DNA of 64,000 nt from Pseudomonadota bacterium (GTDB lineage: Bacteria; Pseudomonadota; Alphaproteobacteria; Kiloniellales; JAKSDN01). The notes under the pieces were generated by a model, which saw only the letters and a program-made list of their open reading frames with translations, had not been told where the DNA came from and ran no database searches. Location of the stretch: assembly GCA_039029395.1 (NCBI GenBank), contig JBCCGG010000018.1, positions 27,773 through 91,772 of the forward strand. Direction: 5' to 3'. The translations under genes and the position numbers were made by a program. Positions 11,841-47,408 of the stretch are shown here, in pieces (position 1 is the stretch's first letter; every line of letters starts with the position of its first letter).

Positions 11841-11845
11841 GTACG

Positions 11846-26113: not shown

Positions 26114-26158
26114 GGAACCAATTTCGTGAAGGCCCTACAATACCTCTAAATTGGTTCC
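26114..26158. promoter_or_regulatory. candidate operator: inverted repeat GGAACCAATTT (N23) AAATTGGTTCC
   Basis: Perfect 11-bp inverted arms at 26114-26124 and 26148-26158, upstream of the ABC operon start (26310). Confidence 0.5.
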
Positions 26159-27359: not shown

Positions 27360-27362
27360 CGC

Positions 27363-27412
27363 CAGCGGCCGGCGCCCCAAGAGACACGAGGGTGCCGGCC
27401 GGCTCTTTTTTC
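27363..27412 (+). terminator. intra-operon hairpin (attenuating terminator) after the binding-protein gene
   Basis: AGCGGCCGGCGCCC / GGGTGCCGGCCGGCT forms a roughly 13-bp GC stem and is followed by CTTTTTTCT. Confidence 0.65.
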
Positions 27413-27521
27413 TCGCGGTCATGGCCTATGATGGTGAGCCGATGAGGGAGTTGGGGCCGGCGGCCGCCCACCGCGTTCGCGGCCGCGGTCAAAGTATTAG
27501 GTTCAGCGGCGAGGTCAGGGC

Positions 27522-29123: not shown

Positions 29124-29124
29124 G

Positions 29125-30183
29125 ATGACCGACAGCAGCCAGCCGCGCTGGGCCCCGGAAGCCCTTCATAGGGTTCTTCGCGTCCTGCTGCCGATTCTAT
29201 TGGCGCTGGGTGCGGGCGCCGTCCTGCTTGTCATCCTGGGCAAAGACCCGCTCGCCTACTACGGATACGTTCTCAAGCGCGGCCTCTACAGTCCCTCGGG
29301 CTTCGAAGCGTCGATCACCCGCATGGCGCCCTTGCTGTTGATCGCGGCCGGGCTGATCGTCGCGTTTCGCGCCGGGCTTTGGAACCTCGGAGTCGATGGC
29401 CAGTTTCTCTTGGCCGCCGTCTTCGTATCGGCCCTGACGCCCGCCCTCCTGCCCTTTATGCCGGCGATCGCGGCCATCGTCCTGGCCTTTCTGGTGGCGG
29501 TCGCTGTCGGCGCGGCCTGGTCCTTGATACCGGCTTTCTTGAAGGCGCGGCACGGCATCAACGAGATCATCTCGACCCTTATGATGAGCTTTCTGGGCGT
29601 CAGCTTCGCCAACGTGCTGATCAAGATCCCCTTCAACGATCCAAGCACCACCGTGCCGCAGACCGCCACCTTGCCAGTCGATGACCGGCTTGCGAGGCTG
29701 GGCGATAGCACGGTCCATTGGGGCGTGGTGCTCGCGGTCATCATGGTCGTCGCGGTTCATTACCTGATGGAGCGAACCTCCCTGGGGCTGAAGCTTCAGA
29801 TCGTCGGCACCAACCCGCGCACCGCGATCCACTGCGGGCTGGACGTGAAGCGGCTGACCTTCGTCGCCTTCGCCATCAGCGCTGGGTTGGCCGGGCTGGC
29901 CGGGGCGGTGGATGTCTTGGGCGTGCACGGAACGATCCGGGCCGATTGGAACCCGGCCTATGGCATCGTCGTCATCCCCTTGGTGTTCCTCGCGCGCTTC
30001 AACGGCTTCGCGGTCATCGCTTTCGTGTTCTTCTTCGCCGTCTTGATGATCGGCGGCGAGAGCGCGGCGCGGCGCCTGGGCGTGCCGAGCTTCTTCGTCC
30101 TGGTCTTGGTCGCCTTGTTGATGCTGTTCTTCGCGGTGATCGAGTTCCTCGATCACGCCCGGCGCAATCGGGCGGGGAGCTGA
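29125..30183 (+). CDS. ABC transporter permease
   Basis: 352 aa and polytopic. The start is 2 nt after the ATPase stop. Confidence 0.85.
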   Translation: MTDSSQPRWAPEALHRVLRVLLPILLALGAGAVLLVILGKDPLAYYGYVLKRGLYSPSGFEASITRMAPLLLIAAGLIVAFRAGLWNLGVDGQFLLAAVFVSALTPALLPFMPAIAAIVLAFLVAVAVGAAWSLIPAFLKARHGINEIISTLMMSFLGVSFANVLIKIPFNDPSTTVPQTATLPVDDRLARLGDSTVHWGVVLAVIMVVAVHYLMERTSLGLKLQIVGTNPRTAIHCGLDVKRLTFVAFAISAGLAGLAGAVDVLGVHGTIRADWNPAYGIVVIPLVFLARFNGFAVIAFVFFFAVLMIGGESAARRLGVPSFFVLVLVALLMLFFAVIEFLDHARRNRAGS

Positions 30184-30186
30184 GTC

Positions 30187-31122
30187 TTGGACGCGCTTTT
30201 GACCGAGGTCTTCATCGGATCGCTGATATTCGGCGCGGTCACGGCCGGCGTGCCCCTGCTGTTGGCCGGATTGGGCGAACAGGTCTCGGAGAAATCGGGC
30301 GTTCTCAACATCGGCCTGGAAGGCATGATGCTGATCGGCGCCTATGCCGGATTCACGGCCGCTTATCTGAGCGATTCCTTCCTGCTAGGGTTCTTGGCGG
30401 GCGGGTTCGCCGGCCTTGCCACCGCGGCCTTGATGGCTTTGCTTTGCGTGATCCTCGGCATGAATCAAATCGTCGTCGGCATTGCGATCACCTTGGGCGC
30501 GGAGGGTTTGACCGCGCTGCTCCATCATTTTCAGTTCAGCCGCAGCTATCCCCGCCTGTCGAAAGTGGAAACCTGGCCGATACCGGGCCTGAGCGATCTG
30601 CCCTACGTCGGCTCCGCGCTGTTCGACCGGAATGTCCTGATCTACTTTGCAATCCTTCTGACCGTGGCGATGGTCTGGGTCTTCAGGCGCACACATTTCG
30701 GGCTCAACCTCCAGGCCGCCGGAGACAAGCCGGCCGCGTTGGACGCAACCGGCGTGAACGTCAAGGCGACGCGGAGCGCAGCGGTCCTCATAACCGGCTT
30801 TCTCGGCGGACTTGGCGGCGCCTACATGTCGACCGTGGGTGGCGGCCTGTTCCTGCCCTTCATGACCGGCGGCGCCGGCTTCATCGCCATCGTGCTCGCG
30901 ATGCTGGCCCGCGGACATCCCTTATGGGTTCTGGTCGGCGCGCTGCTGTTCGGCGCGAGCCTTTCCATGGCGACCGCCCTGCAGGTGGCCGGCGTGAACA
31001 TTCCCACCGACGTGGTTCAGATGTTGCCCTTCGCGATGGTGATCCTGGTGCTGGTGCTCTTCGCGCGCCACAGCCAGCTACCCCCCGCGCTGGGAATTCC
31101 CTATCATCGCGGGGAGCGTTAA
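30187..31122 (+). CDS. ABC transporter permease
   Basis: 311 aa and polytopic. TTG start 4 nt after the previous stop. Confidence 0.8.
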   Translation: MDALLTEVFIGSLIFGAVTAGVPLLLAGLGEQVSEKSGVLNIGLEGMMLIGAYAGFTAAYLSDSFLLGFLAGGFAGLATAALMALLCVILGMNQIVVGIAITLGAEGLTALLHHFQFSRSYPRLSKVETWPIPGLSDLPYVGSALFDRNVLIYFAILLTVAMVWVFRRTHFGLNLQAAGDKPAALDATGVNVKATRSAAVLITGFLGGLGGAYMSTVGGGLFLPFMTGGAGFIAIVLAMLARGHPLWVLVGALLFGASLSMATALQVAGVNIPTDVVQMLPFAMVILVLVLFARHSQLPPALGIPYHRGER

Positions 31123-31176: not shown

Positions 31177-31998
31177 ATGACCGACACGAAAGTACACCTG
31201 CTGGACGGCGGCACCTTGGTGATCGACGGCTTCCACGCCTTTTGGAACCGGGGTCCCGGCGGCGAGCTGCGCTTCCCCTGCTATGCGGTGTTGGTCGAGC
31301 ACAAGGACGGGCTCTACATATTCGATACCGGCTACGACCACGACCATGTCATGAAGGTGCTGCCATTCGAAAAGCCGCTGCAGACGCCTGAGCAGACCAT
31401 TCCCGGCGCACTGGCGGCCATCGGCAAAAGGCCGGAGGACGTAAATTACGTCATCAACTCCCACTACCATTTCGATCACTGCGGCGGGAACAAGCATCTG
31501 AAGACCGCCTGCACGATCTGCCATTCGGCCGAGCTTGATGCCTGTACCGGCCATCAGCCCTTCGAGCGGCTTGGCTACTCCGACACCAGCTGCTTTGCCG
31601 GCCTCGGCATCGAAACCGAAGACGGAAGCTCGGTCGGTGGATCCGGCGACCCGGAGATCGACATCTACACACCCAAGTACGAGACCTTCACCGGCGATCA
31701 GGAGATCGCCAAGGGCCTCTGGCTGTTCGAGACTCCGGGCCACACGGCAGGCCACTACAGCATGATGGTGGAGCTTGCCAACCGACGTCCCATGCTGTTC
31801 ACCGCCGACGCCTGCTATAGCCAGAAGAACATGGAGATGATGTGCATCTCGAGCTTCCACCTGGACCCGACGGCGAGCGTGAAGTCCATGCAGCGATTGA
31901 AGGACCTGGCCGAAAAGCACGATGCGGAGCTGTTCTACTCCCACGATCCCGAGAGCTTCGTGGACTACGTCAAGGCACCGGACGGGTACTATTCTTGA
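31177..31998 (+). CDS. metallo-beta-lactamase-fold lactonase (AHL-lactonase / 4-pyridoxolactonase-like)
   Basis: 273 aa with ATG after GGAGGAG. The zinc motif is SHYHFDHCGG (HxHxDH), followed downstream by TPGHTAGH and FTADA. Confidence 0.8.
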   Translation: MTDTKVHLLDGGTLVIDGFHAFWNRGPGGELRFPCYAVLVEHKDGLYIFDTGYDHDHVMKVLPFEKPLQTPEQTIPGALAAIGKRPEDVNYVINSHYHFDHCGGNKHLKTACTICHSAELDACTGHQPFERLGYSDTSCFAGLGIETEDGSSVGGSGDPEIDIYTPKYETFTGDQEIAKGLWLFETPGHTAGHYSMMVELANRRPMLFTADACYSQKNMEMMCISSFHLDPTASVKSMQRLKDLAEKHDAELFYSHDPESFVDYVKAPDGYYS

Positions 31999-32024: not shown

Positions 32025-33203
32025 CTAGGGCGCGCCTTGGTCGATGACCGCCAGGGCGCCGGCCACGCCGGCCGGCACGTCGGCGGCGAACCCCAGTTTG
32101 CGCAGAGCGCCGCCCAAGGCGGTCACGGCCACGACGGCATAAATCGGTTCCGCGGTCGGGCCCATATGGCCGATGCGCAGCAGCTTGCCCAGGGTATCGC
32201 CGCGCCCGACCGAGAGCACCACGCCGTAGAGATCGCGCGCCGCCGCGACGATCGCCCCATCGTCGAGACCATCGGGCAAGCTGACGGCGGTGGTTGTCGG
32301 CGAGGCGATCGCCTCGGACGCCGGCCACAGCGTGCAGCCCATCGCGGTAACTCCCGCTCGGCAGGCCGCGGCGGTCAGGGCATGGCGCGACCAGACCACT
32401 TCCGGCCCCTCCGCAAGATAACGCTCGATCGCCGCGGCGAGGCCGCTGATCTCGGAAATCGACGGGGTGAAGGGAAAGGGCTCGGTGCGGCGCCAGGCAT
32501 CCTTCCAATCCAGATAGCTCAGGATCGAGGCCCTCGGGCTATCGGGGTTCTGCTCCATGTGGCGCCAGGCCTTCTCGCTGACAGCGACGAAGGTGATCCC
32601 CGGCGTTCCGCCCAGGCACTTGCCGGGCCCGGTGATGAATACATCAGCCTGGCAGTCGCTCGGATGAATATCCATTCCGCCGAAGGACGACACTGCATCG
32701 ACCAGCAGCATCGCGCCGTGGTCGGCGACGGCCGCGCCGATCTCGACCAGCGGATTAATGGTGCCCGACGGCGTGTCGTGATGGACGACGGAGACCACCG
32801 AGATCTCCGGGTGCGCCTTGAGCGCCTGCGCCACGGCTTGGCCGGTTATCGCCTCGTTATAGGGAACCTCGATCTCCACCATGTCCTTGTGGTAGCGCGC
32901 CGACCAATACCCGAAGCCCTTGCCGTAAACTCCGGAGGCGAGATTCAGCACCACGTCCTGCTTGGAGATCAGCGAGGCCGCCGCCGCCTCGATGGCAACC
33001 GCCGGCTCGGCCTGAAGAATCAGCGCGGGGTCGGGCCAGCGCAGGGCCTCGGCGCATTTGACGGCGGTTTCCTCATAGAAGGCCTGAAAGCTTGGGTCGT
33101 AGTCGTAACCGAGCGGCCGCGCCATGGCCTGCAAGACATCGGGATAACCCTGAACCGGCCCCGCCGTCAGGGTTATGACGGGTGGCTTAATCTCTGTGGT
33201 CAT
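32025..33203 (-). CDS. class V (fold-type I) pyridoxal-phosphate aminotransferase, alanine-glyoxylate / pyridoxamine-pyruvate aminotransferase-like
   Basis: 392 aa. Segments: VVSVVHHDTPSGTINP, LLVDAVSSFGG, and GPGKCLGG (PLP-Lys region). Confidence 0.85.
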   Translation of the reverse strand: MTTEIKPPVITLTAGPVQGYPDVLQAMARPLGYDYDPSFQAFYEETAVKCAEALRWPDPALILQAEPAVAIEAAAASLISKQDVVLNLASGVYGKGFGYWSARYHKDMVEIEVPYNEAITGQAVAQALKAHPEISVVSVVHHDTPSGTINPLVEIGAAVADHGAMLLVDAVSSFGGMDIHPSDCQADVFITGPGKCLGGTPGITFVAVSEKAWRHMEQNPDSPRASILSYLDWKDAWRRTEPFPFTPSISEISGLAAAIERYLAEGPEVVWSRHALTAAACRAGVTAMGCTLWPASEAIASPTTTAVSLPDGLDDGAIVAAARDLYGVVLSVGRGDTLGKLLRIGHMGPTAEPIYAVVAVTALGGALRKLGFAADVPAGVAGALAVIDQGAP

Positions 33204-33261
33204 GTCGCTCGCTCCTCGAAAGAGTCAACGATAAAGCCTGTTGGCTTGGACATTCGCCGCG

Positions 33262-34821
33262 ATGGCTTATGACTATGTCATCGTCGGCGCCGGATCGGCC
33301 GGCTGCGTTCTCGCGGCCCGGCTGAGCGAGGAAGAGTCGCTCTCCGTTTGCCTGGTCGAGGCGGGCGGTCCCGCGCTTGATCCAGCGATCGCGGACCCGG
33401 CCATGTGGCCGGCGCTGCAAGGCCGGGAGATCGATTGGGGCTTCGAGACCACGGCCCAACACCATACGGCGGCGCGGCGCCACGCTTGGCCGCGCGGCCG
33501 TGTGATCGGCGGCTCGAGCGCGCTCAACGCCATGGCCCACGTGCGCGGCCACCCTAGGGATTTCGACAGCTGGGCGGCGGCCGGCTGCGACGGATGGGGT
33601 TACGCCGACTTGATGCCATACTTCATCAAGTCCGAGACCTCGGACCGCCCGGGCTCGCCTTACCATGGCTATGGCGGCCCGATTACCCTCATGACGCCCA
33701 GCGAGCCGCACCCGATCACGCGCTGCTACATGGCGGCCGGCGAAAGTCTCGGCATCCCACCGACCGACGAGCACAACGGGCCCTGCATGCTCGGGCCGAC
33801 CCTCAACAGCCTGACCATCGTCGAGGGCAAGCGCCAAAGCGTGGCCGACGCCTATCTGACGCCCGCGCTCGGGCGGCCTAATCTGGAAATCCGCACGGGC
33901 TGCCTCGTCGACCGGGTCGTCATGACCGGCGACGGTCTTTGCCGTGGGGTGGAGGTTCTGCAAGACGGTCAGCGCCAGGTGATCGCGGCGGGGCGCGCCG
34001 TGCTTCTGTGCGGCGGCACCGTCGGATCGCCTATGGTTCTTGCGCGCTCCGGACTTGGCCCGGCGTCGGATCTGACCGCTCTGGGTATCCAGGTGCAAGC
34101 GGACTTGCCGGGCGTCGGGCAAAACCTCCACGATCATCTGCTGAGCGGCGGCAACCTCTACCGCGCCAAACGCCCGGTGCCGGCGAGCAAGTACCAGCAT
34201 TCCGAATCGCTGATGTATCTGGAGGGTGACGGCGATCGGCGCGCGCCCGAGATGGTGCTGGCCTGCGTCTTGGCACCGGTCGTGACCGAGTGTTTCGAGG
34301 CGCCGGCGCCGGGCAAGGCCTATACCATCATGTTCGGCGTCACCCATCCCCGCAGCCGGGGCGCCTTGCGCCTTGTCTCGGCCGACCCGACCGCGGCGCC
34401 GGTGATCGATCCGAACTACTTGGCAGAGGCCTACGACCGGGAGACCTACGTCAGAGCCTTGGAACGGGCGCGCGCGGTTGGCGCCGCGGCGGCCCTCGGG
34501 GACTGGCGCCAGGCCGAACTTTTGCCGGGACCGGGCGTTCGCTCCGAGCAAGAGCTGACCGCGTTTCTGGCCAAGGCCGCCTTCACGCACCACCACCCCG
34601 TGGGTACCTGTCGCATGGGCAGCGACGAATTGGCCGTCGTGGGCTCGGACCTGTCGGTGCGCGGGGTCCAAGGTCTCTATGTCATCGATGGCTCGATCCT
34701 CCCGAGCATTCCCACCGGGCCGATCAACGCGGCCATCGTCGCCATCGCAGAGCGGGCAAGCGACCTTCTGCGCGGCAAGGCGCCGCTCGCGCCCTTCGAC
34801 CCGCGCGCGGCGCCGACGTGA
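33262..34821 (+). CDS. GMC family FAD-dependent oxidoreductase (second copy)
   Basis: ORF 33241..34821; the likely ATG is at 33262 ([15 protein letters not shown]). GGSSALNAM; HPVGTCRMG...VIDGSILP. Confidence 0.9.
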   Translation: MAYDYVIVGAGSAGCVLAARLSEEESLSVCLVEAGGPALDPAIADPAMWPALQGREIDWGFETTAQHHTAARRHAWPRGRVIGGSSALNAMAHVRGHPRDFDSWAAAGCDGWGYADLMPYFIKSETSDRPGSPYHGYGGPITLMTPSEPHPITRCYMAAGESLGIPPTDEHNGPCMLGPTLNSLTIVEGKRQSVADAYLTPALGRPNLEIRTGCLVDRVVMTGDGLCRGVEVLQDGQRQVIAAGRAVLLCGGTVGSPMVLARSGLGPASDLTALGIQVQADLPGVGQNLHDHLLSGGNLYRAKRPVPASKYQHSESLMYLEGDGDRRAPEMVLACVLAPVVTECFEAPAPGKAYTIMFGVTHPRSRGALRLVSADPTAAPVIDPNYLAEAYDRETYVRALERARAVGAAAALGDWRQAELLPGPGVRSEQELTAFLAKAAFTHHHPVGTCRMGSDELAVVGSDLSVRGVQGLYVIDGSILPSIPTGPINAAIVAIAERASDLLRGKAPLAPFDPRAAPT

Positions 34822-35222
34822 TCAAGCGTTTTGGGATCTTCATCGCCGCCGCGTTCGCCGTCGCGGGCTCGGGACATGCCGCCGACCCACAAAATATACA
34901 CCTGCGGATCGAGAATGCCTCCGAGGTATCGATACGCTGCGTGATGGTCCTGGCGCATTTCGTCACCAAGGACATGCCGCCGATCCCATCGGGAAGCAGC
35001 TACACAACGACTCTGATCCGGGACCCGGACCAGGGCACCTTGAGCTATGGCTCTTTCGACGACCATCCTATGATGCTCGAGAACCTCCTGTGCGGCAGTC
35101 TCTCCGATTGGACGACGACCTCTCGGGATCTTCCAATTCTGAACCTACGCTCCGCCGAGGCCACGCGATTCCACTTTCAATGCACCTTGCAGGACGAACG
35201 CCTCGCCTGCGCGACGCGTTAG
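34818..35222 (+). CDS. small exported protein, unknown function
   Basis: The GTG at 34818 overlaps the GMC stop (GTGA). Signal peptide VIKRFGIFIAAAFAVAGSGHA. 134 aa. It is in frame with the listed ORF 34290..35222. Confidence 0.5.
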   Translation: MIKRFGIFIAAAFAVAGSGHAADPQNIHLRIENASEVSIRCVMVLAHFVTKDMPPIPSGSSYTTTLIRDPDQGTLSYGSFDDHPMMLENLLCGSLSDWTTTSRDLPILNLRSAEATRFHFQCTLQDERLACATR

Positions 35223-35963
35223 CTACCACCGCACCATGCCGGCATCCGCGTTGAGCGCCTGACCGGTAATCCAATGAGCCTCCTCGGAGGCCAGGAACGC
35301 GATGGCCGGAACGATGTCGGGTGGCGTCCCGCGCCCCTTGATCGCCTGCAGCATATCGACGAACTCGAAGGCGTGCTTGTGGTCGGTCTTCTGCACGCCC
35401 TCCGTATCGGTGAGGCCGGGGCATACGCAGTTGACGGTGATCCGGTCGGCGCCCAGCTCGGTCGCCAAGGCCCGGGAGAAGGTCAGGACGCCGCCCTTCG
35501 AAGCCACGTAGTGCGCCATATTTGGCGTGCCGGCGAAAATCGAATTGGAGCATACCGACACGATCCGGCCGTACCCGCCTTTGCGCATGGCATCGGACGA
35601 GGCCCGGCACATGAGATAAAGCCCGTCCAAGTTCACCCGAAGAACCCGCCGCCACTCTTCAAAGGTCAGCTCGTCCCACGGCACGAAGGGCACGATCGCC
35701 GCCGAATTGATAAGGATGTCGATCTTGCCGCACTTGTCCAGGACAGCCTTGTGAAGCGCAGCCACCGAGTCCGGATCGCCGATATCGCAGTGCACGACGA
35801 AGCAGCCCTCGCCAAGGTCCGCCGCCTTGGCCTCGACGCCCGCGTGATCGATGTCGACCGCCGCCACGGTGGCCCCTTCGCTTGCCAGGCGCTTGGCCGT
35901 TTCCGCGCCAATGCCGCTCGCCGCGCCGGTCACGATGGCGACCCGACCTTCAAACCTGCTCAT
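35223..35963 (-). CDS. short-chain dehydrogenase/reductase (SDR)
   Basis: 246 aa. TGAASGIGAET (the TGxxxGxG motif), NSAA, and the catalytic YVASK. Confidence 0.9.
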   Translation of the reverse strand: MSRFEGRVAIVTGAASGIGAETAKRLASEGATVAAVDIDHAGVEAKAADLGEGCFVVHCDIGDPDSVAALHKAVLDKCGKIDILINSAAIVPFVPWDELTFEEWRRVLRVNLDGLYLMCRASSDAMRKGGYGRIVSVCSNSIFAGTPNMAHYVASKGGVLTFSRALATELGADRITVNCVCPGLTDTEGVQKTDHKHAFEFVDMLQAIKGRGTPPDIVPAIAFLASEEAHWITGQALNADAGMVRW

Positions 35964-36000
35964 GCCTTATCTCCCTGTTCATTTGCCTTGTACCGAATGC

Positions 36001-36546
36001 CTAGACCGTCGCCCGGCCCTTTCCGACCCGGGGCGCCGGGCGGCCGCCGTCCGAATAGGCCAAGATCGCGAGTATCTCGTTCGGCCGTGGGGCATCGCCG
36101 ACCATGAGGGTCATGGTGTCCAGCTCGTCGAACGACCAGACCTCGTCCTTGTGGGCCAAAGGCACATCGATCGCCGTGCCCGCGGCGGCCACCTTGGTGA
36201 CCGACGGTATCAGCGCCTCGCCACCGCCGCAGGCCGCGCGCATAGGCTTGCCGAGCTTGGGGTGCAGCAGGGCGGCGGCGTGCTCCAGGTCGCCATTGAC
36301 TCCGACGATGGCCGCCTTGCCGTAGGCCTTGGCCGGCCGCTCCAGCATGGCGACCGCGGTCGCCGCCAACGCCTCGCCGAACTGCATACCCATGTCGAAC
36401 AGGGCCTCCAGGTCCTGCTCGAAGCGGCCGGCAAAGGGGTTGTCCAGCACCGCGAGCGCGGCGACCCGGGTTACCGGGACCTCCGCGGCCTTGCCGGCCT
36501 CGGCCAGAACCCGTTCCTTTATGAACAGCGTTTTACGCATCGTCAT
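36001..36546 (-). CDS. amino acid synthesis family protein (AA_synth / DUF1185-like)
   Basis: The ATG at 36546 gives 181 aa (MTMRKTLFIKERV...NPFAGRF...). The family call is from recollection of this about 180-aa family. Confidence 0.55.
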   Translation of the reverse strand: MTMRKTLFIKERVLAEAGKAAEVPVTRVAALAVLDNPFAGRFEQDLEALFDMGMQFGEALAATAVAMLERPAKAYGKAAIVGVNGDLEHAAALLHPKLGKPMRAACGGGEALIPSVTKVAAAGTAIDVPLAHKDEVWSFDELDTMTLMVGDAPRPNEILAILAYSDGGRPAPRVGKGRATV

Positions 36547-36566
36547 GATCGCGCTCCCCCTCTTGC

Positions 36567-37577
36567 TCAGCGTTTCGCCTCGACCACGCCGAGCAGTTTT
36601 TCGTACTCGGCGGCGACGTCGGCGTCGGCGCTCAAGATCTGGTCGCTGACCGACTTGAAGGTTTGATTCATGCGGGCGCGATCTTCGTCGCTCAACTGGT
36701 GGATTTGGCCGCCTTGTTCGAGCCAGACTCGGTTGGTGCGCTCGACATTGTCGATGCCCCATTGGAGCACCGCTTCCTCGGCAGCGCGTCCGGCTTCCAA
36801 GATCGCGGTTTGAACCTCTTCCGACTGGGCCTGGAACCAAGCCTCGTTGACCACATTGACCGAGACGATGATGGAAAACTGAAGATCCGTGACGTTTTCG
36901 GCGATATCGTAATACTTGAAGGCCACTAAGATGGGCATGCCGGCCAACATGCCGTCGATGTTGCCGGACTGGAGCGCCGGCACCACTTCGCTCAAGGGCA
37001 AGGGCAGAGCGCTGGCGCCGATCGCCTCCATGGGCCGAATCTGAAGGGGCGAGGCGAAGGTACGGATCTTGAGGCCCTTGAGATCGTCCAGCTTCGGCGC
37101 CGGCGCCTTGGTCAGCACGATAAAGGGGCTGTTGTAGATCGCGCCGATGATTCTCAAGCCCTTGCTGAGCGCCAGCTGTTCCAGATGATCCCGATAGTCC
37201 GGGTCGTGAATGACACGCGCCAGGTGTTCGGGAGAGTCAAAAAGACCGGGCGCGTCGAAGACCTTGAACTTGGGCTCGGCCCCGACCAGAAAGGCGGTCG
37301 GCGAGATGAAGGATTCGATGGTGCCCAGTAACACGCCCTCGGCCATGCGCGGGATGGTGCCGAGCTGGCTTGCCGGGTAGATCTCGACAACAATTTGATC
37401 GCCGATCCGCTTGCCCAATTCGCTGGCAAAAGTTTTTTGCCATTCATGCTGCACGTCGTTGATGGTGGCGCTGGCCATCTTCATGACCGTTTGCGCCTGG
37501 ACCAGCTGGGCGGGCAGAACGACGCCCATCGCGAGCGCAACGACGAAACCCTTCAATGAGATGCGCGTCTTGATCAT
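36567..37577 (-). CDS. dctP: TRAP transporter substrate-binding protein (DctP family)
   Basis: ATG at 37577 after GGGAGGAG. It has a signal peptide and is 336 aa. It sits directly downstream of dctQM. Confidence 0.85.
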   Translation of the reverse strand: MIKTRISLKGFVVALAMGVVLPAQLVQAQTVMKMASATINDVQHEWQKTFASELGKRIGDQIVVEIYPASQLGTIPRMAEGVLLGTIESFISPTAFLVGAEPKFKVFDAPGLFDSPEHLARVIHDPDYRDHLEQLALSKGLRIIGAIYNSPFIVLTKAPAPKLDDLKGLKIRTFASPLQIRPMEAIGASALPLPLSEVVPALQSGNIDGMLAGMPILVAFKYYDIAENVTDLQFSIIVSVNVVNEAWFQAQSEEVQTAILEAGRAAEEAVLQWGIDNVERTNRVWLEQGGQIHQLSDEDRARMNQTFKSVSDQILSADADVAAEYEKLLGVVEAKR

Positions 37578-37602
37578 GAAGTGCTCCTCCCTTCTTGTTG
37601 AA

Positions 37603-38898
37603 TCAGCCGACGAGCCATAGGGACAGGCCGGGCAGATAGGTGATTGCGAGCAAGGCAACCGTCTGGACGACAAAAAAACCGAAGACGCCCTTGTAGAGAT
37701 CGGTCAGATCGGCCGTCATCACCGATTGTGCGACGAAGAGGTTGAGGCCGAAGGGCGGCGTAAACATCCCGATGCTGAGGTTGACCGTCATGACGATACC
37801 GAAGTGGATCGGGTCGATGCCCAGCTCCAAAACGATCGGCAGAAGGATCGGCGTCAGCACCAGGATGGCCGAGGTCGGATCGATGACGCACCCCAAGGCC
37901 AGCAGCAAGACGTTGATCGCGAGGAGAAAGGTGAATCTCGAAAGCTCGGCCTGCTCGACCCAGGCGACCAACGCTTGGGGTATGCCCTGAACCGTCAGCA
38001 ACCAAGAGAACACGGCGGCGCACGAGAGGATGATCAGGATCTGACCGGTGAGCACTGCCGAATCCGAGGCCGCCTCCAGTATCTCGCCCCAACTCAAGCT
38101 CCGGTAGGCGAAGCGCGCCAGCAAGATGGCGTAGAGGCAGGCGACGCCGCCGGCCTCGGTCGGCGAGAAGTAGCCAAGATAGATCCCCATGAGCACGATC
38201 ACGGGCATGGCCAGCGCGCCGGACGCGTGAACCGTCGCGCGGGCCAGGGGCATCGTCCCACCCTCGGCGTCTCGCACCCTCTGCCCGGCAGGACCGACCG
38301 CGCCCCGCTCGGCCTTGCGCCGCACCCAGATCAGCACGAAGACCGCCATGACGACGGAGATCAATAGGCCTGGCAGGATTCCGGCGATAAACAGCTTCGG
38401 CACCGATTGCTCGGCGCTCGCGCCGTACAAGATCATCGCGATGCTGGGCGGAATCACGATGGCGACCGACCCGCTCGACGCGATCAGGCCAAGGGAAAAG
38501 CGTTTGCTGTAGCCGTCCTTTAGGAGGTCGCCATAGAGGATCCGCCCCGTTGCGGCGACCGTGGCCGGGCTCGATCCGGATACCGCGCCCAGAAGGGTGG
38601 AGGTGCAGATCGTGGTGAGCCCGAGCGCCCCGCGAATTCCGCCGAGGAGACTCTGGCTCCAGACGACCAGTCGGGCCGAGACTCCGCATCGCCCCATCAG
38701 TTCGCCGGCGAAGAGAAAAAAGGGTATGGCGAGCAGAGCGTACTGGTCGACCGCGCCATACATGACCTGGTGAATGATCAAGGGCGGGACGTTCACCACG
38801 AACAAGACGGTGGCGGTGCTGGCCGCCAACAGGACGACCCATATCGGGAATCCGAGCAGAAAAAGGGCGACCGGAACGACCAGAAGAGTCGCAATCAT
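37603..38898 (-). CDS. dctM: TRAP transporter large permease (DctM family)
   Basis: The ATG at 38898 (MIATLLVVPVALFLLGFPIW) gives 431 aa. It is polytopic and overlaps the dctQ stop by 4 nt. Confidence 0.9.
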   Translation of the reverse strand: MIATLLVVPVALFLLGFPIWVVLLAASTATVLFVVNVPPLIIHQVMYGAVDQYALLAIPFFLFAGELMGRCGVSARLVVWSQSLLGGIRGALGLTTICTSTLLGAVSGSSPATVAATGRILYGDLLKDGYSKRFSLGLIASSGSVAIVIPPSIAMILYGASAEQSVPKLFIAGILPGLLISVVMAVFVLIWVRRKAERGAVGPAGQRVRDAEGGTMPLARATVHASGALAMPVIVLMGIYLGYFSPTEAGGVACLYAILLARFAYRSLSWGEILEAASDSAVLTGQILIILSCAAVFSWLLTVQGIPQALVAWVEQAELSRFTFLLAINVLLLALGCVIDPTSAILVLTPILLPIVLELGIDPIHFGIVMTVNLSIGMFTPPFGLNLFVAQSVMTADLTDLYKGVFGFFVVQTVALLAITYLPGLSLWLVG

Positions 38899-39404
38899 GG
38901 CCCGTCCGGCCCCGCCGCGGGGTCGTCCTCCACGCCACTCCCTGATCCTGTGCGCGCGGTGGGCCGCACCGCATAGACCAGGGATATGAGGCAGATCAGG
39001 CCAAGGCCGACCGGAACCGCGCCATGGGGAACGATCATGGGAATCTCGCTCGCCATGCTGGTCTGCCCGACCCGCGCAAGGGTTTGGAGAACGCTCCAGG
39101 ATTGCCAGGTCACATAGCCGCTCAAAAGCGCCACGCAAAGGTAGCGGCCGCGGATCAGCTGGCCGCGCCAGCGCGCGCCCAAGAGTCCGGACAGTTGGTC
39201 GAAGCCCAGGTGACGCCGGTCGAGCGAAACCAAGGCGGCGCCCAGGAACACCAGCCAAACCATGGCGAACACCAGTATCTCGTCGGATCCTGGAATGGCC
39301 TTCTGAAAAAGATAGCGCCCGGCGGCATTGGCGACATTCAAGATCACCATGGCGAGCAGCAAAAGCCCGAGGGCGTAGCGAACGATGGCGCGCGCCACGC
39401 TCAT
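38895..39404 (-). CDS. dctQ: TRAP transporter small permease (DctQ family)
   Basis: 169 aa with four TM helices, directly upstream of dctM. Confidence 0.85.
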   Translation of the reverse strand: MSVARAIVRYALGLLLLAMVILNVANAAGRYLFQKAIPGSDEILVFAMVWLVFLGAALVSLDRRHLGFDQLSGLLGARWRGQLIRGRYLCVALLSGYVTWQSWSVLQTLARVGQTSMASEIPMIVPHGAVPVGLGLICLISLVYAVRPTARTGSGSGVEDDPAAGPDGP

Positions 39405-39419
39405 AGGTGGGCTCTTACA

Positions 39420-40376
39420 CTAAGCGCTTTTCGGCCCATCGTCCTTCCGATCCTGATCCTCCCTTTCCAGGGCGCGGCGGACGGCGATGAAGCGCTCGGC
39501 CCTTTTGGCGCGTAGGGCGTCGATGCCTCCCTCCTCGTAGCCGAAGATTCCCTTCCCCGTTTTGAGACCCAGCTGGCCGTCCTCCGTCCGTCGGGTGACA
39601 TAGGGGCTGACGTCGGAGCGGGTCGAGAGCGCGCCGTTCAAATAGCTTCCGACTGACTGGTAAATGTCGAGCCCGGCCATGTCGAGCAGGGCCATTGGGC
39701 CGACGATGGCCAGCTTGTAGCCGATTCCCCAGGACACGCAGGTGTCCAGATCTTCAGGCTCGATGACGCCATCCTCCACCAGATCCAAGGCTTCGCGCAT
39801 GATCGCGTAGAGTACGCGGTTTTCCACGAACCCGGGGACATCCCGCTTGACTATGACGGGGATCAGGTTGAGGCCCCGAATGGTCTCGGCCATCCACCGG
39901 GTCGTGGCGGCGCTGGTTTGCGCGCCGGCGACGACCTCTATCATGGGAATGATGTGCGGCGGATTGGACCAGTGCATCCCGATGACCCGTTCCGGTGCGG
40001 AAAGAGTCTCTTGAAGCTTGGTGATGGGAATCCCCGAGGTGTCGGACGCGATCACGCAGGATTGGCTGACCAGTCCATCGATCTCCGTCAGCACCTGGCG
40101 TTTCAGGTCCAGGTTCTCCGGTACGTTTTCGACCACTAGGTCGGCGCCCGCCACCGTTTCGGTCAAGGTCTGGCAAAAAGCAACGGCGGTCGCGTCGCCC
40201 TTGGCGGGCATGGCCAACTTGTCGAGCACGCCCGCGATAACGGCGAGGCTGGCGCGCGACCTGGCCACCGCCGCCTGGTCGACATCGAAGGCTCTCACTT
40301 GCAGACCCGCGCGCGCCATGACCGCGGCGATGCCTGCGCCCATTGTTCCTAACCCGATCACGGCTGCGATGGTCAT
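39420..40376 (-). CDS. 3-hydroxyacyl-CoA dehydrogenase family NAD-dependent oxidoreductase
   Basis: 318 aa. The Rossmann motif is AVIGLGTMGAGIA. 3HCDH signature regions: SDTSGIPI, GMHWSNPPHIIPMIEV, PGFVENR. Confidence 0.88.
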   Translation of the reverse strand: MTIAAVIGLGTMGAGIAAVMARAGLQVRAFDVDQAAVARSRASLAVIAGVLDKLAMPAKGDATAVAFCQTLTETVAGADLVVENVPENLDLKRQVLTEIDGLVSQSCVIASDTSGIPITKLQETLSAPERVIGMHWSNPPHIIPMIEVVAGAQTSAATTRWMAETIRGLNLIPVIVKRDVPGFVENRVLYAIMREALDLVEDGVIEPEDLDTCVSWGIGYKLAIVGPMALLDMAGLDIYQSVGSYLNGALSTRSDVSPYVTRRTEDGQLGLKTGKGIFGYEEGGIDALRAKRAERFIAVRRALEREDQDRKDDGPKSA

Positions 40377-40407
40377 GCGTAGGCGCCCCGGTTGTAAGAT
40401 CCTGAAT

Positions 40408-40995
40408 TTAAGCTGCCACGACCTTCTGGAAGGCTGGCCGCGCGCTCAAGCGCTGGTGCCAGGCGCGCAGGGACTCCAGCGGCGGCAGATCGACCGGGAA
40501 GTTAAGGCAGCGGTGCACGATCGGCGCGAGGCAAATGTCGGCCAGGCTGAGGTCATCGCCGGCGAGATAGGGCGATTGCGCAAGGCGGCCGTCCAGCACC
40601 AAGAGGGCCGCCACCAGTTCCTTCGCCGCCGCCTCGGGAACCGCTTGCTCCCCCTTCACCGCCTTGAAGATCGTGACATAGGGCCCGTTCAGGGAGGCAA
40701 GCAGCCAATCCATCCAAGTCTCGACCCGGCTTCGGCCGGCCGGATCGCTGGGATAGAGGGAGGCGCCCGCGGTCGCGGCGATGTAGCGCAGGACTGTGTT
40801 GGATTCCCAGATGACCTGATCGCCGTCGATCAGGGTCGGCACCTTGCCGGTCGGGTTCATCGACAGGTATTCCTCGCTGGCCGTGTTGCCGAACTGACGG
40901 CCGTAATCCTCGCGCGTGTAGCTGGCGCCGATCTCCTCGAGGAGAAGAATCACCTTCTGCACGTTGCCCGACGTGCTACGCCCCAGAACTCTCAT
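40408..40995 (-). CDS. glutathione S-transferase
   Basis: The ATG at 40995 after GGGAGGAGGG gives 195 aa. The N-terminal thioredoxin-like segment is MRVLGRSTSGNVQKV...GKVPTLIDGD, followed by a helical C-terminal domain. Confidence 0.85.
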   Translation of the reverse strand: MRVLGRSTSGNVQKVILLLEEIGASYTREDYGRQFGNTASEEYLSMNPTGKVPTLIDGDQVIWESNTVLRYIAATAGASLYPSDPAGRSRVETWMDWLLASLNGPYVTIFKAVKGEQAVPEAAAKELVAALLVLDGRLAQSPYLAGDDLSLADICLAPIVHRCLNFPVDLPPLESLRAWHQRLSARPAFQKVVAA

Positions 40996-41046
40996 GCGAA
41001 CCCTCCTCCCTTGAAAATCGTCCATGAACTCTTCGGCACGCGCGCT

Positions 41047-41442
41047 TCAAGCCTGCTGGGGGTGAAAGGCGATCGCATCCATTTCGATCTTGGTATCGAT
41101 CACCGCGCGGGCTTCGACCGTGGTGCGCGCAATTCCGCCGTCGGGGAAGTAATCCGCGAAGGCGCGGTTATAGCGTCCGAAGTTGCGGGTATCCTCCAGA
41201 TAGACGGTGATCCTGACCACGTCCTTCAGATCGGCACCGGCGGCCTTCAGGACGCGGCGGATCGACTCGATGGTCCAGCGCGTCTGCTCCTCGATCGGGC
41301 CATCGCACATCTTGCCGTTCTCGTCCTTGGCGACCTGCCCCGAGACGAAGATGAAATCGCCGGCCCGAACGGCAGGATGGAACGGCAAGTTAGGATTCTC
41401 GGTCCCGATTGGGGTGATCGCCTTGTCTCGACCTGCGTCCAT
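41047..41442 (-). CDS. RidA/YjgF family reactive-intermediate (enamine/imine) deaminase
   Basis: 131 aa. AVRAGDFIFVSGQ...VRITVYL...ARTTVEA pattern. ATG after GGGAGGGG. Confidence 0.85.
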   Translation of the reverse strand: MDAGRDKAITPIGTENPNLPFHPAVRAGDFIFVSGQVAKDENGKMCDGPIEEQTRWTIESIRRVLKAAGADLKDVVRITVYLEDTRNFGRYNRAFADYFPDGGIARTTVEARAVIDTKIEMDAIAFHPQQA

Positions 41443-41459
41443 TTGCCCCTCCCGATTGC

Positions 41460-42587
41460 TCAGAACACCGTTGTTTCCACGATATCGACCCCCCGCTGTC
41501 GATCGATCAGGTAGATCAAGCCCCGCCCATCGATCGTAACGTCGTTGGAAGAGGCCCGGTCAAACCCCTCCGGGGGATCGGACTCGTAGTAGCCGACCTC
41601 GCGCGGGCAGAACGGATCGGCGAAGTCGACCAGGCGCAATCCTTGGGCAAACCACGCGAAGGGCACGACGCTGGTGCCGGTCAGCCGCTCGGACGGCTGG
41701 TGGCAGCCGGTCATGGGTTGTTGAGCTTGGCCGTCCCGGTCGAGCCCCTCGACTTGAAATGTCGAAATGGACGTCGGGTTGCGCTCGTCTGTGATGTCGT
41801 AGACCCATGTGAAGGCCGGCGGCGAGGGATAGAGCTTGGCCACGTCCTCGTCGGCGACGATCATCACGTCGCGACCCTTGAGCGCCATCGGCATGCGCAG
41901 GCAGGTATGGGTCGGGTGCGGAAAACAGCTGCTGGTGTTGCGCGCGGAGATCAGCTTGGGCTGGGACATGTCGCTGATATCCAGCACGAAGAAACCGTGA
42001 TGCCAATAGCTGACGTAAAGCCGGTCGCCGACCCGCAGGGGGTGGTGACAGCGCGGCGGCACGTAGTCGCCCCAGGGATAGGCCTCGCCGCCGGCCTCCC
42101 ATTGGCCGGGAATCCACCAGCGGCCGACCTCCTCGGGCTTGGTCGGATCCTGAAGGTCCAGGATCATGACGATGTTGCCCACATAGCCCTCGGCGGTGGG
42201 CGAAATGTAGGCATAGCGCCCATCGAAGTCGTAGCGGTGGACGCCTTTGCCCTGTGTCGACCACTTTGCGATTTGACGAGGCTCGGACGGCGTCGAGACA
42301 TCGTAAATCCCGAGACCGCCGCCGAACTTGGGATCGCCCTCTCCCAGGCGCTCGTGATTGACCACCATGATGCCGTTCGCCGACCGCACCTTGTGGGAAT
42401 GCCATCCCTGGGGAAGCTCGATCCGCGCCAGAAGCTTGGGCGCGGTTGGATCGGCGACGTCATAGATCGACGTGCCGCTTGGCGCGCGCATGTGTCCGAC
42501 GAAAAGCAGCTCTCCGTCGATCCAGACCTGACCACCGCCGGGACAGTCGATGTGGCCAACCCGCTTCGTGTTACTGGCCTTGCCCAT
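41460..42587 (-). CDS. beta-propeller protein (LVIVD-repeat-like), unknown function
   Basis: The ATG at 42587 gives 375 aa. It has repeated strand motifs (GLGIYDVS, GFFVLDIS, GLRLVDFA, GLIYLIDRQRGVDIVE). The family name is tentative. Confidence 0.6.
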   Translation of the reverse strand: MGKASNTKRVGHIDCPGGGQVWIDGELLFVGHMRAPSGTSIYDVADPTAPKLLARIELPQGWHSHKVRSANGIMVVNHERLGEGDPKFGGGLGIYDVSTPSEPRQIAKWSTQGKGVHRYDFDGRYAYISPTAEGYVGNIVMILDLQDPTKPEEVGRWWIPGQWEAGGEAYPWGDYVPPRCHHPLRVGDRLYVSYWHHGFFVLDISDMSQPKLISARNTSSCFPHPTHTCLRMPMALKGRDVMIVADEDVAKLYPSPPAFTWVYDITDERNPTSISTFQVEGLDRDGQAQQPMTGCHQPSERLTGTSVVPFAWFAQGLRLVDFADPFCPREVGYYESDPPEGFDRASSNDVTIDGRGLIYLIDRQRGVDIVETTVF

Positions 42588-42613
42588 TCCTACCTCGCAA
42601 AAAGCCCATAGCC

Positions 42614-43771
42614 TTATGGGAAAAGTTTGACCACATCGCCGCTCTCGTCGCGCCCCCAGCGCTTGTAGAGTCCGACCTTCCTCAAGGTCGGCTCGTCGCT
42701 GGCCACGAAAAGAATGATCGGCTGATCCGTCCCGTTGACGTGCTCGACCCAACTGCCGCCGGGCACCGCCACGGTGTCGAACTGCGCCCAATCGTGGCGC
42801 TCGCCATCAATCATCGAGTATCCCGGTGGGCCCTCGAAAGGCGCCACCAACTGGTTCGCGGTCTGCTTGAGCGGCAGGGTCCGCTCGCCCGGCCGAAGCA
42901 ACTGCGCGAAGAACGTCATGGTCTGGAACACGGGCCCGCCGTTCGTCGGGTCGATGTACTCGATCTTCAAGCCGTCGTAGGGATCGCCGTCGGCGTCGGC
43001 GTTTTCGTCCAGAAACTCGCGCATGGGCGCCCAGCGATAGACGTACATGGGCGAGGCCGCGCCGGTGCCCCGGTCGTGCGGCACGAAATGGGGCTTTAGG
43101 CCGCCTCGGCCATAGATGAGCTTGGAATAGTCGGCGCCGAAGCGCGCGGTCTGCTCCATGCGCTTGGCCAGCTTGCCATCGGCCTCTTCCTTGTAATCGT
43201 GTTCGAAATAGACGGCATTCAAGGTCTCGACCAGCGGCAGGTCCAAGACCGACAGATTGATCGCCGGCTCGTCGCCTTTGTTGCCGTGGTTGTGCCAAGT
43301 ATCGTGCGGCGTGAGCACCATGTCGCCCGGCCCAAAAACGATATCCTCTCCCTCGACGCCGGTGAAGTTCTGCGCGCCGGTCAAGCCGAAGCGGATGGCG
43401 TTGGGCGAGTGCCGGTGGGGTGGCATCACCTCTTGCGGGTCGTTGAGACGGTAGGCGGTGTACATGGTCGTGACCGATGCCCGGCGCGGCGCCAAGCCCG
43501 GATTGACGAGGATCAGCGAGCGGCGCTCGGAATCGGCCATGCTGACCAATTCGGCGGAGCGCTGCAAAAGCGGCCGGATGACCTCCGCGTAGCTCCAAAC
43601 GAAGGGCACGGCCTTCGCGCTGTTCATCAGCTGCCGGACTTCGTCGTGATCGACCTTGGTCGTGGTCGCCCAGAAGGGGAACATGTGGGCTTTGTAGACG
43701 TCGTCGTAGAGGCCTTTTAGGGCCGCCTCGTGATTGCCGGCCTCATGTTCCGATGCGGTCTTGGTGCTCAT
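42614..43771 (-). CDS. gentisate 1,2-dioxygenase-type bicupin ring-cleavage dioxygenase
   Basis: 385 aa. The N-terminal cupin metal motif is MPPHRHSPNAIRF...TPHDTWHNHGN. A second cupin domain follows. It is the first gene of a 10-gene minus-strand operon. Confidence 0.8.
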   Translation of the reverse strand: MSTKTASEHEAGNHEAALKGLYDDVYKAHMFPFWATTTKVDHDEVRQLMNSAKAVPFVWSYAEVIRPLLQRSAELVSMADSERRSLILVNPGLAPRRASVTTMYTAYRLNDPQEVMPPHRHSPNAIRFGLTGAQNFTGVEGEDIVFGPGDMVLTPHDTWHNHGNKGDEPAINLSVLDLPLVETLNAVYFEHDYKEEADGKLAKRMEQTARFGADYSKLIYGRGGLKPHFVPHDRGTGAASPMYVYRWAPMREFLDENADADGDPYDGLKIEYIDPTNGGPVFQTMTFFAQLLRPGERTLPLKQTANQLVAPFEGPPGYSMIDGERHDWAQFDTVAVPGGSWVEHVNGTDQPIILFVASDEPTLRKVGLYKRWGRDESGDVVKLFP

Positions 43772-43792
43772 CGCGCGACAGCCCCTCCAAGT

Positions 43793-43815
43793 GAACCAAT
43801 ATCAAAATTGGTTTC
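43793..43815. promoter_or_regulatory. candidate operator: palindrome GAACCAAT ATCAAA ATTGGTTTC
   Basis: This inverted repeat sits 22-44 nt upstream of the dioxygenase start codon. It shares the 13-mer GAACCAATATCAA with 25956-25968. Confidence 0.55.
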
Positions 43816-44238
43816 GCTCCAAACCCTCGAACATCCTCTCCGAGATCATAGCCTTGCCGCGCGATCAATGTCAAAGCCGCGCACTGGCGCAATCTCGTGC
43901 GGCAGGCAGGAGGTAGATACGCTACAGCATACTGATATAAAACAATAAACTGTAAGCTCAACAAAACTCACGCAACGGCAGGAAGGTCCGGTATGGGGGA
44001 TCGGACCATTTAATCCGCTGGCGTGATCATTATGCTATCGGCTGGAGCAAATCCGATCGACAAGCCGGAACCAAACGCCTTTCGCGCCATCTTTCCCCTG
44101 AATGGCGACGGCTCATGCACTGGTCATATCGTCTGCGCACCCGCCATGCTTCCTCCGTTTCAACACCCCGTGGTAGGTTCACTGCGCCTCGGCGACGGAA
44201 CCTTTTGCCCGGACGTCGGGGGTATCGGAGGAAAAAGC

Positions 44239-44784: not shown

Positions 44785-44807
44785 CGGGTCTAACGCTTGG
44801 GGGGGCC

Positions 44808-47408
<2,601 letters not shown>

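Follow-up and report, generated by a model that had tools for sequence, protein, structure and literature searches.

A widely conserved, uncharacterised gene set in place of the canonical lower branch of vitamin B6 breakdown, probably opening the pyridine ring by different chemistry

The bacterium studied here has all the known genes for the first six steps of vitamin B6 breakdown, but the three textbook enzymes that complete the pathway are replaced by an uncharacterised, widely conserved gene set (an iron dioxygenase, a beta-propeller protein, RidA and a GST) that probably opens the pyridine ring by different chemistry; we found no description of it in the searchable literature. As a starting point we considered a window of 64,000 nucleotides (contig JBCCGG010000018.1 of assembly GCA_039029395.1, positions 27,773 to 91,772), in which positions 35223-43771 of the minus strand form a tightly packed ten-gene operon. 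An initial annotation, made from the sequence alone, had proposed that a bicupin-centred module replaces the canonical lower B6 pathway in this operon. All ten genes lie where it placed them (some start positions were refined), and comparative genomics supports its central idea as far as it can, although the chemistry is inferred and there are no biochemical, genetic or expression data.

The operon lies in a genuine vitamin B6 catabolic island, the features of which are as follows:

43845..43874, minus strand: sigma-70-like promoter (TTGACA-18-TATGAT) of the operon
43795..43812: operator-like palindrome ACCAAT-N6-ATTGGT, between the promoter and the bicupin start codon
42614..43771, minus strand: bicupin of the gentisate/salicylate 1,2-dioxygenase superfamily, proposed ring-cleaving dioxygenase for HMPDC
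41460..42587, minus strand: cytoplasmic LVIVD-repeat beta-propeller of 375 aa, proposed metal-dependent hydrolase acting on the ring-fission product
41047..41442, minus strand: RidA-family imine/enamine deaminase (PF01042)
40408..41025, minus strand: GstB-like glutathione S-transferase of unknown role, possibly isomerising the ring-fission product
39420..40376, minus strand: FHMPC dehydrogenase orthologue, which makes HMPDC
36567..39404, minus strand: TRAP transporter dctQMP (DctQ 38895-39404, DctM 37603-38898, DctP 36567-37577)
36001..36546, minus strand: AA_synth/DUF1185 protein of unknown function (PDB 2QTP and 3BYQ, both uncharacterised)
35223..35963, minus strand: SDR-type pyridoxal 4-dehydrogenase
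33241..34821, plus strand: pyridoxine 4-oxidase (GMC family)
32025..33203, minus strand: pyridoxamine-pyruvate transaminase
31177..31998, plus strand: 4-pyridoxolactonase
26310..31122, plus strand: "putative B6" BMP-type ABC importer (binding protein, ATPase and two permeases)
25077..25826, minus strand: GntR/FCD regulator (PyrR-like)
23423..25066, plus strand: 4-pyridoxic acid dehydrogenase orthologue (GMC family)

All six upper enzymes of degradation pathway I, as known from Mesorhizobium loti/japonicum MAFF303099 (mlr6785-mlr6807) and Pseudomonas sp. MA-1, are present and were identified by curated models or PDB orthologues. Pyridoxine 4-oxidase matches PDB 4HA6/3T37 with 478 bits (next best 317 bits), pyridoxamine-pyruvate transaminase scores 627 bits on NF046070 (cut-off 600), the SDR pyridoxal 4-dehydrogenase 400 bits on NF047923 (cut-off 325) and 4-pyridoxolactonase 447 bits on NF047925 (cut-off 325), while the 4-pyridoxic acid dehydrogenase is 63% identical to the GMC gene next to FHMPC dehydrogenase in canonical clusters. 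The FHMPC dehydrogenase scores 494 bits on NF042925, just under the cut-off of 500, but groups with the canonical enzymes on a phylogenetic tree. The ABC importer exceeds the cut-offs of NF047927, NF047930 and NF047929. The GntR regulator, the BMP-type ABC importer, the TRAP system and an AA_synth gene are also shared with the canonical pathway.

By contrast, the canonical lower enzymes are absent from the window and from the whole 98%-complete genome. Using reference proteins from an M. loti-type cluster, validated against PDB 2Z7B, 3ALJ and 3KXP, a tblastn search of the genome gave a best hit of 23-30% identity and 50 bits for HMPDC 4-decarboxylase (class II aldolase fold, Mlr6791), no hit at E<1e-3 for the flavin MHPC oxygenase (Mlr6788) and a best hit of 26% identity and 71 bits for AAMS hydrolase (alpha/beta hydrolase, Mlr6787), none of these hits being on the contig of the window. 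One of the eight class II aldolase genes was checked against PDB and scores only 43 bits to 2Z7B. A PEBP-family gene found in canonical clusters is missing as well, and in place of these genes stand the bicupin, the LVIVD propeller, RidA and the GST.

We then examined how these genes are distributed among other genomes. Of 50 genomes with an FHMPC dehydrogenase orthologue, 17 carry the canonical MHPC oxygenase and HMPDC decarboxylase and the other 33 carry the bicupin, always beside FHMPC dehydrogenase, with no genome having both or neither. In a class-wide sample of 401 genomes, the FHMPC dehydrogenase orthologue and the bicupin occur in exactly the same 10 genomes, 1-4 kb apart, and all 12 order-level relatives show the same linkage. 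Of 80 species-representative loci, 73 carry the bicupin and 77 the propeller; most of the loci without a bicupin match are short contigs or are cut at the relevant end, and two appear rearranged. Bicupin, propeller and FHMPC dehydrogenase remain linked through three gene orders. However, the canonical clusters form one clade on the FHMPC dehydrogenase tree, and the clean mutual exclusion may therefore reflect a single replacement event rather than many independent ones.

AA_synth, the TRAP system and the SDR, which the initial annotation had listed with the module, also occur in canonical M. loti-type clusters and are not part of the replacement, the core of which is the bicupin and the LVIVD propeller. 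RidA and the GST accompany this core in about two thirds of loci and, being missing from about one third, are not essential. Nor is this the alternative B6 pathway II, to which the initial annotation had alluded, as pathway I is kept up to HMPDC.

About 40% of bicupin-type loci have no upper B6 genes within 10 kb, and one variant, with no lactonase, PLDH or PPAT within 10 kb, instead carries hydantoinase A/B and a 2OG oxygenase together with the bicupin, propeller and HADH-family dehydrogenase. It is therefore conceivable that this trio degrades a different hydroxy-carboxy (hetero)aromatic compound, a possibility that the initial annotation also raised, and is only recruited next to B6 genes in some genomes, B6 itself being broken down only as far as HMPDC or 4-pyridoxic acid. 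We consider this unlikely here, although it is not excluded for variant loci that lack the upper genes: in this window and in about 60% of loci the trio lies inside a cluster with curated B6 enzymes and the "B6" ABC importer, under a shared dyad, the dehydrogenase is the orthologue of the characterised FHMPC dehydrogenase, and genomes with the trio never have the canonical lower genes, or the reverse, among those compared.

Gaps between the genes of the operon are 15-37 nt, or a 4-nt overlap, and the only sigma-70-like site found in 34800-44900 (TTGACA-18-TATGAT, 11 of 12 matches, at 43874-43845) lies 74 nt upstream of the bicupin ATG. Interestingly, half-sites related to the ACCAAT-N6-ATTGGT palindrome occur in the GntR/ABC intergenic region (26117-26155 and 25957), there are only 8 such dyads in the 6.16 Mb genome, and a like palindrome lies upstream of the bicupin in 27 of 73 relatives, against 1 of 73 control stretches. 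In most relatives the GntR regulator sits divergent from the bicupin. The palindrome ties the bicupin operon to the GntR/B6-ABC control region, and a GntR repressor probably controls the operon through this dyad.

The bicupin (Cupin_2) is named only "cupin domain-containing protein" in public records, although JGI auto-annotation calls it "gentisate 1,2-dioxygenase". It aligns over its full length with PDB 2D40 and 3BU7, and the 3-His iron site (H119, H121 and H160, all invariant), H162 and the carboxylate-binding R127 are conserved. It nevertheless scores only 167 bits or less to solved members of the gentisate, salicylate, 1-hydroxy-2-naphthoate and 5-aminosalicylate 1,2-dioxygenases (PDB 2D40, 3BU7, 2PHD), and falls below both equivalog cut-offs, with a full-length match of 210 bits to the gentisate 1,2-dioxygenase model TIGR02272 (cut-off 442) and 206 bits to NF049978 (cut-off 650). 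Six positions, Y104, Y107, R108, N110, D111 and S174, are invariant in the clade and differ from the relatives; the nearest paralogues and two solved gentisate dioxygenases have Gln or Ser at position 108, and the paralogues have Asp at 174. An ordinary gentisate or salicylate pathway fragment that happens to lie next to the B6 genes is thus close to refuted, since in addition to these scores and distinct pocket residues there is no zeta-class isomerase and no FAH-type hydrolase, and the bicupin is 100% linked to FHMPC dehydrogenase across at least 15 genera.

Orthologues of the propeller are 73-83% identical and all named "hypothetical protein". Its AF2 model (pLDDT 84, pTM 0.87) has a predicted seven-bladed LVIVD propeller fold, the best match of which is Sb-PTE, the phosphotriesterase of Sphingobium sp. 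TCM1 with a binuclear metal centre (PDB 5HRM; Foldseek E 1e-17, against 1e-8 for generic propellers; TM 0.69-0.72). Both share LVIVD-type repeats and many His, Cys, Asp and Glu residues of the propeller are invariant, but identity is 19%, Sb-PTE is about 120 residues longer, and the genomic context and likely substrate are unrelated. RidA keeps the Arg that binds the 2-imino-acid carboxylate ("ARTTVE", aligned with "ARVAVE" of PH0854) but is below the TIGR00004 (81.5 bits, cut-off 106.25) and RutC cut-offs; it would play the same logical role as RidA/RutC deaminases of the pyrimidine Rut pathway and 2-aminomuconate deaminase, removing a reactive enamine or imine after ring opening. The GST, which the initial annotation had related to maleylpyruvate isomerases, is GstB-like (best PDB hits 6NV6, with 137 bits, and 4KH7) and not zeta class, with 64 bits on the maleylacetoacetate isomerase model TIGR01262 (cut-off 171) and 51 bits to the structure 2CZ2.

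The mechanism that we infer begins with the bicupin as an Fe(II) 3-His enzyme opening HMPDC between C3, which bears the OH, and C4, which bears the COOH, with no prior decarboxylation, to give an N-substituted 2-iminopropanoate joined to an (aminomethylene)oxaloacetate skeleton. The GST may isomerise the C5=C6 double bond, and the propeller, as a remote relative of a binuclear-metal propeller hydrolase, would hydrolyse the enamine/imine or acyl linkage and so stand in for AAMS hydrolase. RidA would convert the released 2-iminopropanoate/2-aminoacrylate-type fragment to pyruvate and ammonia, the remaining C4-C5 acid, a formyl-oxaloacetate-like compound, entering central metabolism. As 4-pyridoxic acid and FHMPC also carry the 3-OH/4-COOH salicylate-like motif, they cannot be excluded as the dioxygenase substrate, in which case the HADH-family enzyme and the other proteins would act on ring-opened products; this would still be a new lower branch, with a different substrate and order of steps. 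Some bicupin-type loci indeed have no GMC 4-pyridoxic acid dehydrogenase within 20 kb. This earlier opening nevertheless appears improbable, because FHMPC dehydrogenase is retained in every bicupin-type genome and is orthologous to the canonical enzyme (it lies in the same clade, and Rhizobiaceae members score 523-565 bits, over the cut-off), because this window keeps the 4-pyridoxic acid dehydrogenase, and because the invariant extra Arg108 and the Asp-to-Ser change at 174 fit, by inference, a substrate with an additional carboxylate.

We therefore favour, with reasonable though not full confidence, the view that the operon encodes the end of a catabolic pathway for vitamin B6 (pyridoxine, pyridoxamine, 4-pyridoxolactone, 4-pyridoxic acid), which keeps the known pathway I as far as 3-hydroxy-2-methylpyridine-4,5-dicarboxylate (HMPDC) and after that uses a different, uncharacterised lower branch.

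The region 35223-43771 holds ten co-directional genes on the minus strand, separated by gaps of 15-37 nt except for dctQ and dctM, which overlap by 4 nt. In the order in which they follow the promoter-like site, they are:
42614-43771, minus strand, bicupin
41460-42587, minus strand, LVIVD-repeat beta-propeller (375 aa, no signal peptide)
41047-41442, minus strand, RidA
40408-41025, minus strand, GST
39420-40376, minus strand, HADH-family FHMPC dehydrogenase
38895-39404, minus strand, dctQ
37603-38898, minus strand, dctM
36567-37577, minus strand, dctP
36001-36546, minus strand, AA_synth/DUF1185
35223-35963, minus strand, SDR pyridoxal 4-dehydrogenase

Two further ORF calls, 37574-38974 and 41560-42405, were rejected as wrong frames or wrong starts for DctM and the propeller. 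The only sigma-70-like site in 34800-44900 is TTGACA-18-TATGAT at 43874-43845, 74 nt upstream of the bicupin ATG, and ClpB, at 44808-47408, ends the island on that side. Between the promoter-like site and the bicupin start lies the palindrome ACCAAT-ATCAAA-ATTGGT (43795-43812); related half-sites occur in the GntR/ABC intergenic region (26117-26155 and 25957), and only eight such dyads exist in the whole genome. A like palindrome, mostly 28-70 nt before the start codon, is present upstream of the bicupin in 27 of 73 relatives but in only 1 of 73 control stretches. This ties the bicupin operon to the B6 regulon.

The surrounding island is a genuine B6 catabolic locus, as curated models or solved orthologues identify each of the upper enzymes (scores in bits, followed by the model cut-off where one applies):
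33241-34821, pyridoxine 4-oxidase (PDB 4HA6, 478; next best 317)
32025-33203, pyridoxamine-pyruvate transaminase (NF046070, 627 against 600)
35223-35963, pyridoxal 4-dehydrogenase (NF047923, 400 against 325)
31177-31998, 4-pyridoxolactonase (NF047925, 447 against 325)
23423-25066, 4-pyridoxic acid dehydrogenase (63% identical to the canonical GMC gene)
39420-40376, FHMPC dehydrogenase (NF042925, 494 against 500)
26310-31122, 'putative B6' ABC importer
25077-25826, GntR/FCD regulator

Pathway I is therefore complete down to HMPDC. In addition, a small exported ORF of 134 aa (34818-35222, plus strand) overlaps the stop codon of the pyridoxine 4-oxidase gene; it has no Pfam match, but a homologue (31-50% identity) lies beside the same GMC gene in 14 of 80 related loci and it may be a conserved periplasmic partner of the oxidase. 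Just upstream of the island, at 19191-23248, an ACC deaminase (TIGR01274, 575 bits) is followed by a stand-alone AceE-like E1 component, with a divergent Lrp-type regulator, as already noted in the initial annotation.

By contrast, the canonical lower pathway is absent from the whole genome. A search of a plasmid collection with the FHMPC dehydrogenase for annotated canonical clusters gave no match. We obtained reference proteins from locus L152, an M. loti-type cluster in the Mesorhizobium family, and confirmed them by PDB matches (HMPDC decarboxylase to 2Z7B, 469 bits; MHPC oxygenase to 3ALJ, 795 bits; AAMS hydrolase to 3KXP, 507 bits). Using tblastn against the window's own genome (6.16 Mb, 98.4% complete), only distant superfamily members were found for HMPDC decarboxylase (23-30% identity, 50 bits) and AAMS hydrolase (26% identity, 71 bits), and nothing at E<1e-3 for MHPC oxygenase. 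To look for a hidden HMPDC decarboxylase, all eight class II aldolase genes of the genome were compared with NCBIfam and one of them with PDB; none matches any B6-specific model, and the one compared with PDB scores only 43 bits to 2Z7B.

We then examined the distribution of the module in other genomes. Among order-level relatives, thirteen of 61 genomes, including this one, have an FHMPC dehydrogenase orthologue, and in all 12 relatives fetched the genes for bicupin, LVIVD, RidA, GST and FHMPC dehydrogenase are contiguous (65-78% identity) and lie beside the B6 ABC importer, the lactonase and a divergent GntR gene. In an even class-wide sample of 401 genomes, the FHMPC dehydrogenase orthologue and the bicupin orthologue (63% identity or more) occur in exactly the same 10 genomes, 1-4 kb apart, the next-best bicupin homologues being only 38-42% identical. 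A scan of species representatives found 586 relatives of the dehydrogenase, the best 80 loci of which include Tistlia, Virgifigura, Dongia, Hypericibacter, Kiloniellales, Mesorhizobium zhangyense and Bradyrhizobium.

Genes found within 10 kb in the best 80 species-representative loci (number of loci out of 80).
LVIVD propeller: 77
Bicupin: 73
GST: 53
RidA: 51
Lactonase: 49
PLDH: 46
PPAT: 42
AA_synth: 15

Most of the loci without a bicupin match are short contigs or are cut at the relevant end; two loci of this set, L052 and L108, appear rearranged. Three gene orders occur: bicupin-LVIVD-RidA-GST-dehydrogenase, as in this window; bicupin-LVIVD-dehydrogenase-AA_synth, without RidA or GST; and bicupin-dehydrogenase-LVIVD, accompanied by hydantoinase A/B and a 2OG oxygenase and with no upper genes nearby. 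This last arrangement is seen in locus L061 (6571-17450) and also in loci L054-L069, where a 2OG-Fe(II) oxygenase is followed by the bicupin, an FHMPC dehydrogenase-like gene and LVIVD, and then by hydantoinase/oxoprolinase A and B, no upper B6 genes lying within 10 kb; it may represent a related pathway for another substrate, or a different downstream treatment of the ring-fission product. Several other bicupin-type clusters (loci L013-L024 and L030-L033, from Dongia-like genomes of the group designated g12) have the lactonase, the ABC importer and FHMPC dehydrogenase but no PLDH, PPAT or GMC 4-pyridoxic acid dehydrogenase within 20 kb. For clusters without the GMC gene, substitution by FHMPC dehydrogenase itself was considered but is not favoured, since for the M. 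loti enzyme the reduction of FHMPC to 4-pyridoxic acid appears to be practically irreversible (Yokochi et al. 2009).

In the Mesorhizobium family, 28 of 301 genomes have the dehydrogenase. Seventeen of these have the canonical order (PNOX, GntR, AAMS hydrolase, MHPCO, AA_synth, PEBP, HMPDC decarboxylase, 4PADH, FHMPC dehydrogenase, TRAP, ABC), whereas eleven have LVIVD-RidA-GST upstream instead. The AA_synth/DUF1185 gene, which the initial annotation had included in the replacement module, is found in both kinds of cluster (44-47% identity) and is a conserved but uncharacterised member of B6 catabolic clusters, matching only uncharacterised structures; in canonical clusters it sits between MHPCO and HMPDC decarboxylase (L152, about 11400-12000, plus strand) and is followed by a 152-aa PEBP-family gene (PF01161; L152 12006-12464, plus strand). 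AA_synth is commoner in loci that lack RidA and GST (12 of about 26, against 3 of about 51), but as it also occurs in canonical clusters and, in this window, together with RidA and GST, we did not retain it as a substitute for them.

Across 50 genomes with the dehydrogenase, the MHPCO orthologue (76% identity or more) and the HMPDC decarboxylase orthologue (72% or more) are in the same 17 genomes, the bicupin (59% or more) is in the other 33, and no genome has both or neither. Two bicupin-type genomes do carry an unlinked flavin monooxygenase 45% identical to MHPC oxygenase (genome G107, contig C1, 1913949-1914950; genome G408, contig C6, 110182-111186), which is probably a different hydroxypyridine or aromatic hydroxylase. 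On an FHMPC dehydrogenase tree, the canonical-linked enzymes form one supported clade (97/99) nested among bicupin-linked ones, so that a single change explains the pattern; the mutual exclusion is therefore clean but may rest on a single replacement event. Better evidence for functional coupling is that the bicupin-propeller-dehydrogenase linkage persists through rearrangements and across many families. In this sample, the textbook arrangement looks like the derived minority.

The bicupin aligns end to end with the E. coli and S. pomeroyi gentisate dioxygenases (167 and 158 bits) and keeps H119, H121 and H160, plus H162 and R127, but fails the equivalog cut-offs for gentisate and 5-aminosalicylate dioxygenases. 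Residues Y104, Y107, R108, N110, D111 and S174 are invariant in 28 orthologues, while seven nearest paralogues have Ser or Gln at position 108 and Asp at 174, and both solved gentisate dioxygenases have Gln at 108. Gaining an Arg and losing an Asp is the direction expected for a substrate with an extra carboxylate, although this remains an inference. The propeller is 73-83% identical across orthologues and has many invariant His, Cys, Asp and Glu residues; its model (pLDDT 84) matches the binuclear-metal phosphotriesterase Sb-PTE far better than generic propellers (E 1e-17 against 1e-8). RidA keeps the Arg that binds the carboxylate of 2-imino acids. The GST, which the initial annotation had related to the family that supplies maleylpyruvate isomerases, is GstB-like and not zeta class.

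From these data a mechanism can be proposed by inference only. Enzymes of this dioxygenase family cleave between the carboxyl-bearing and the hydroxyl-bearing ring carbons, as established for gentisate, salicylate, 1-hydroxy-2-naphthoate, 5-aminosalicylate and 5-nitrosalicylate, and in HMPDC that bond is C4-C3. Cleavage would give -OOC-C(CH3)=N-CH=C(COO-)-CO-COO-, in which the N1-C2(CH3)-C3 part is a 2-iminopropanoate unit, the canonical RidA substrate once it is released, and the rest is an (aminomethylene)- or formyl-oxaloacetate. The propeller would be the hydrolase, and so the functional analogue of AAMS hydrolase, and the GST would be an optional isomerase, whereas RidA would speed up a deamination that can also occur spontaneously, which fits its absence from a third of loci. 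The expected end products are pyruvate, ammonia and a C4/C5 keto-acid, or formate plus oxaloacetate, where the canonical route instead yields succinic semialdehyde, acetate, ammonia and CO2.

Vitamin B6 catabolism is taught from two pathways worked out in a few strains, and genes are known only for the M. loti version of pathway I. Full-text literature searches, which did not cover subscription journals, found no paper linking B6 catabolism to a cupin dioxygenase, LVIVD or RidA, and NCBI has curated models for the neighbouring B6 genes but none matched these proteins. Current annotation pipelines call the two core proteins 'cupin domain-containing protein' and 'hypothetical protein', and pathway reconstructions therefore report an incomplete B6 pathway for these organisms. 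Every FHMPC dehydrogenase-bearing genome that we sampled outside one rhizobial clade lacks the three lower enzymes and carries this module instead: 13 of 13 order-level relatives, 10 of 10 genomes in the class-wide sample, all of the 80 best species-representative loci that are long enough to judge, with the reservation that L052 and L108 appear rearranged, and 11 of 28 in the Mesorhizobium family.

We consider it about as likely as not that a gentisate-type bicupin dioxygenase directly cleaves the pyridine ring of HMPDC, which would be a new substrate class for that family and would skip the decarboxylation and flavin oxygenation of the textbook route, and that a cytoplasmic LVIVD beta-propeller is a new metallohydrolase family processing the ring-fission product. 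On this reading, such a route, rather than the textbook M. loti one, would be the predominant and probably older way in which Alphaproteobacteria mineralise vitamin B6 and 4-pyridoxolactone/4-pyridoxate. Its resolution would provide a first catalytic role for a cytoplasmic LVIVD propeller, a pyridine substrate for the gentisate dioxygenase family and the end products of B6 mineralisation, and is relevant now because 4-pyridoxolactone and 4-pyridoxate were recently proposed as signals exchanged between marine microbes (bioRxiv 10.64898/2026.01.20.700305).
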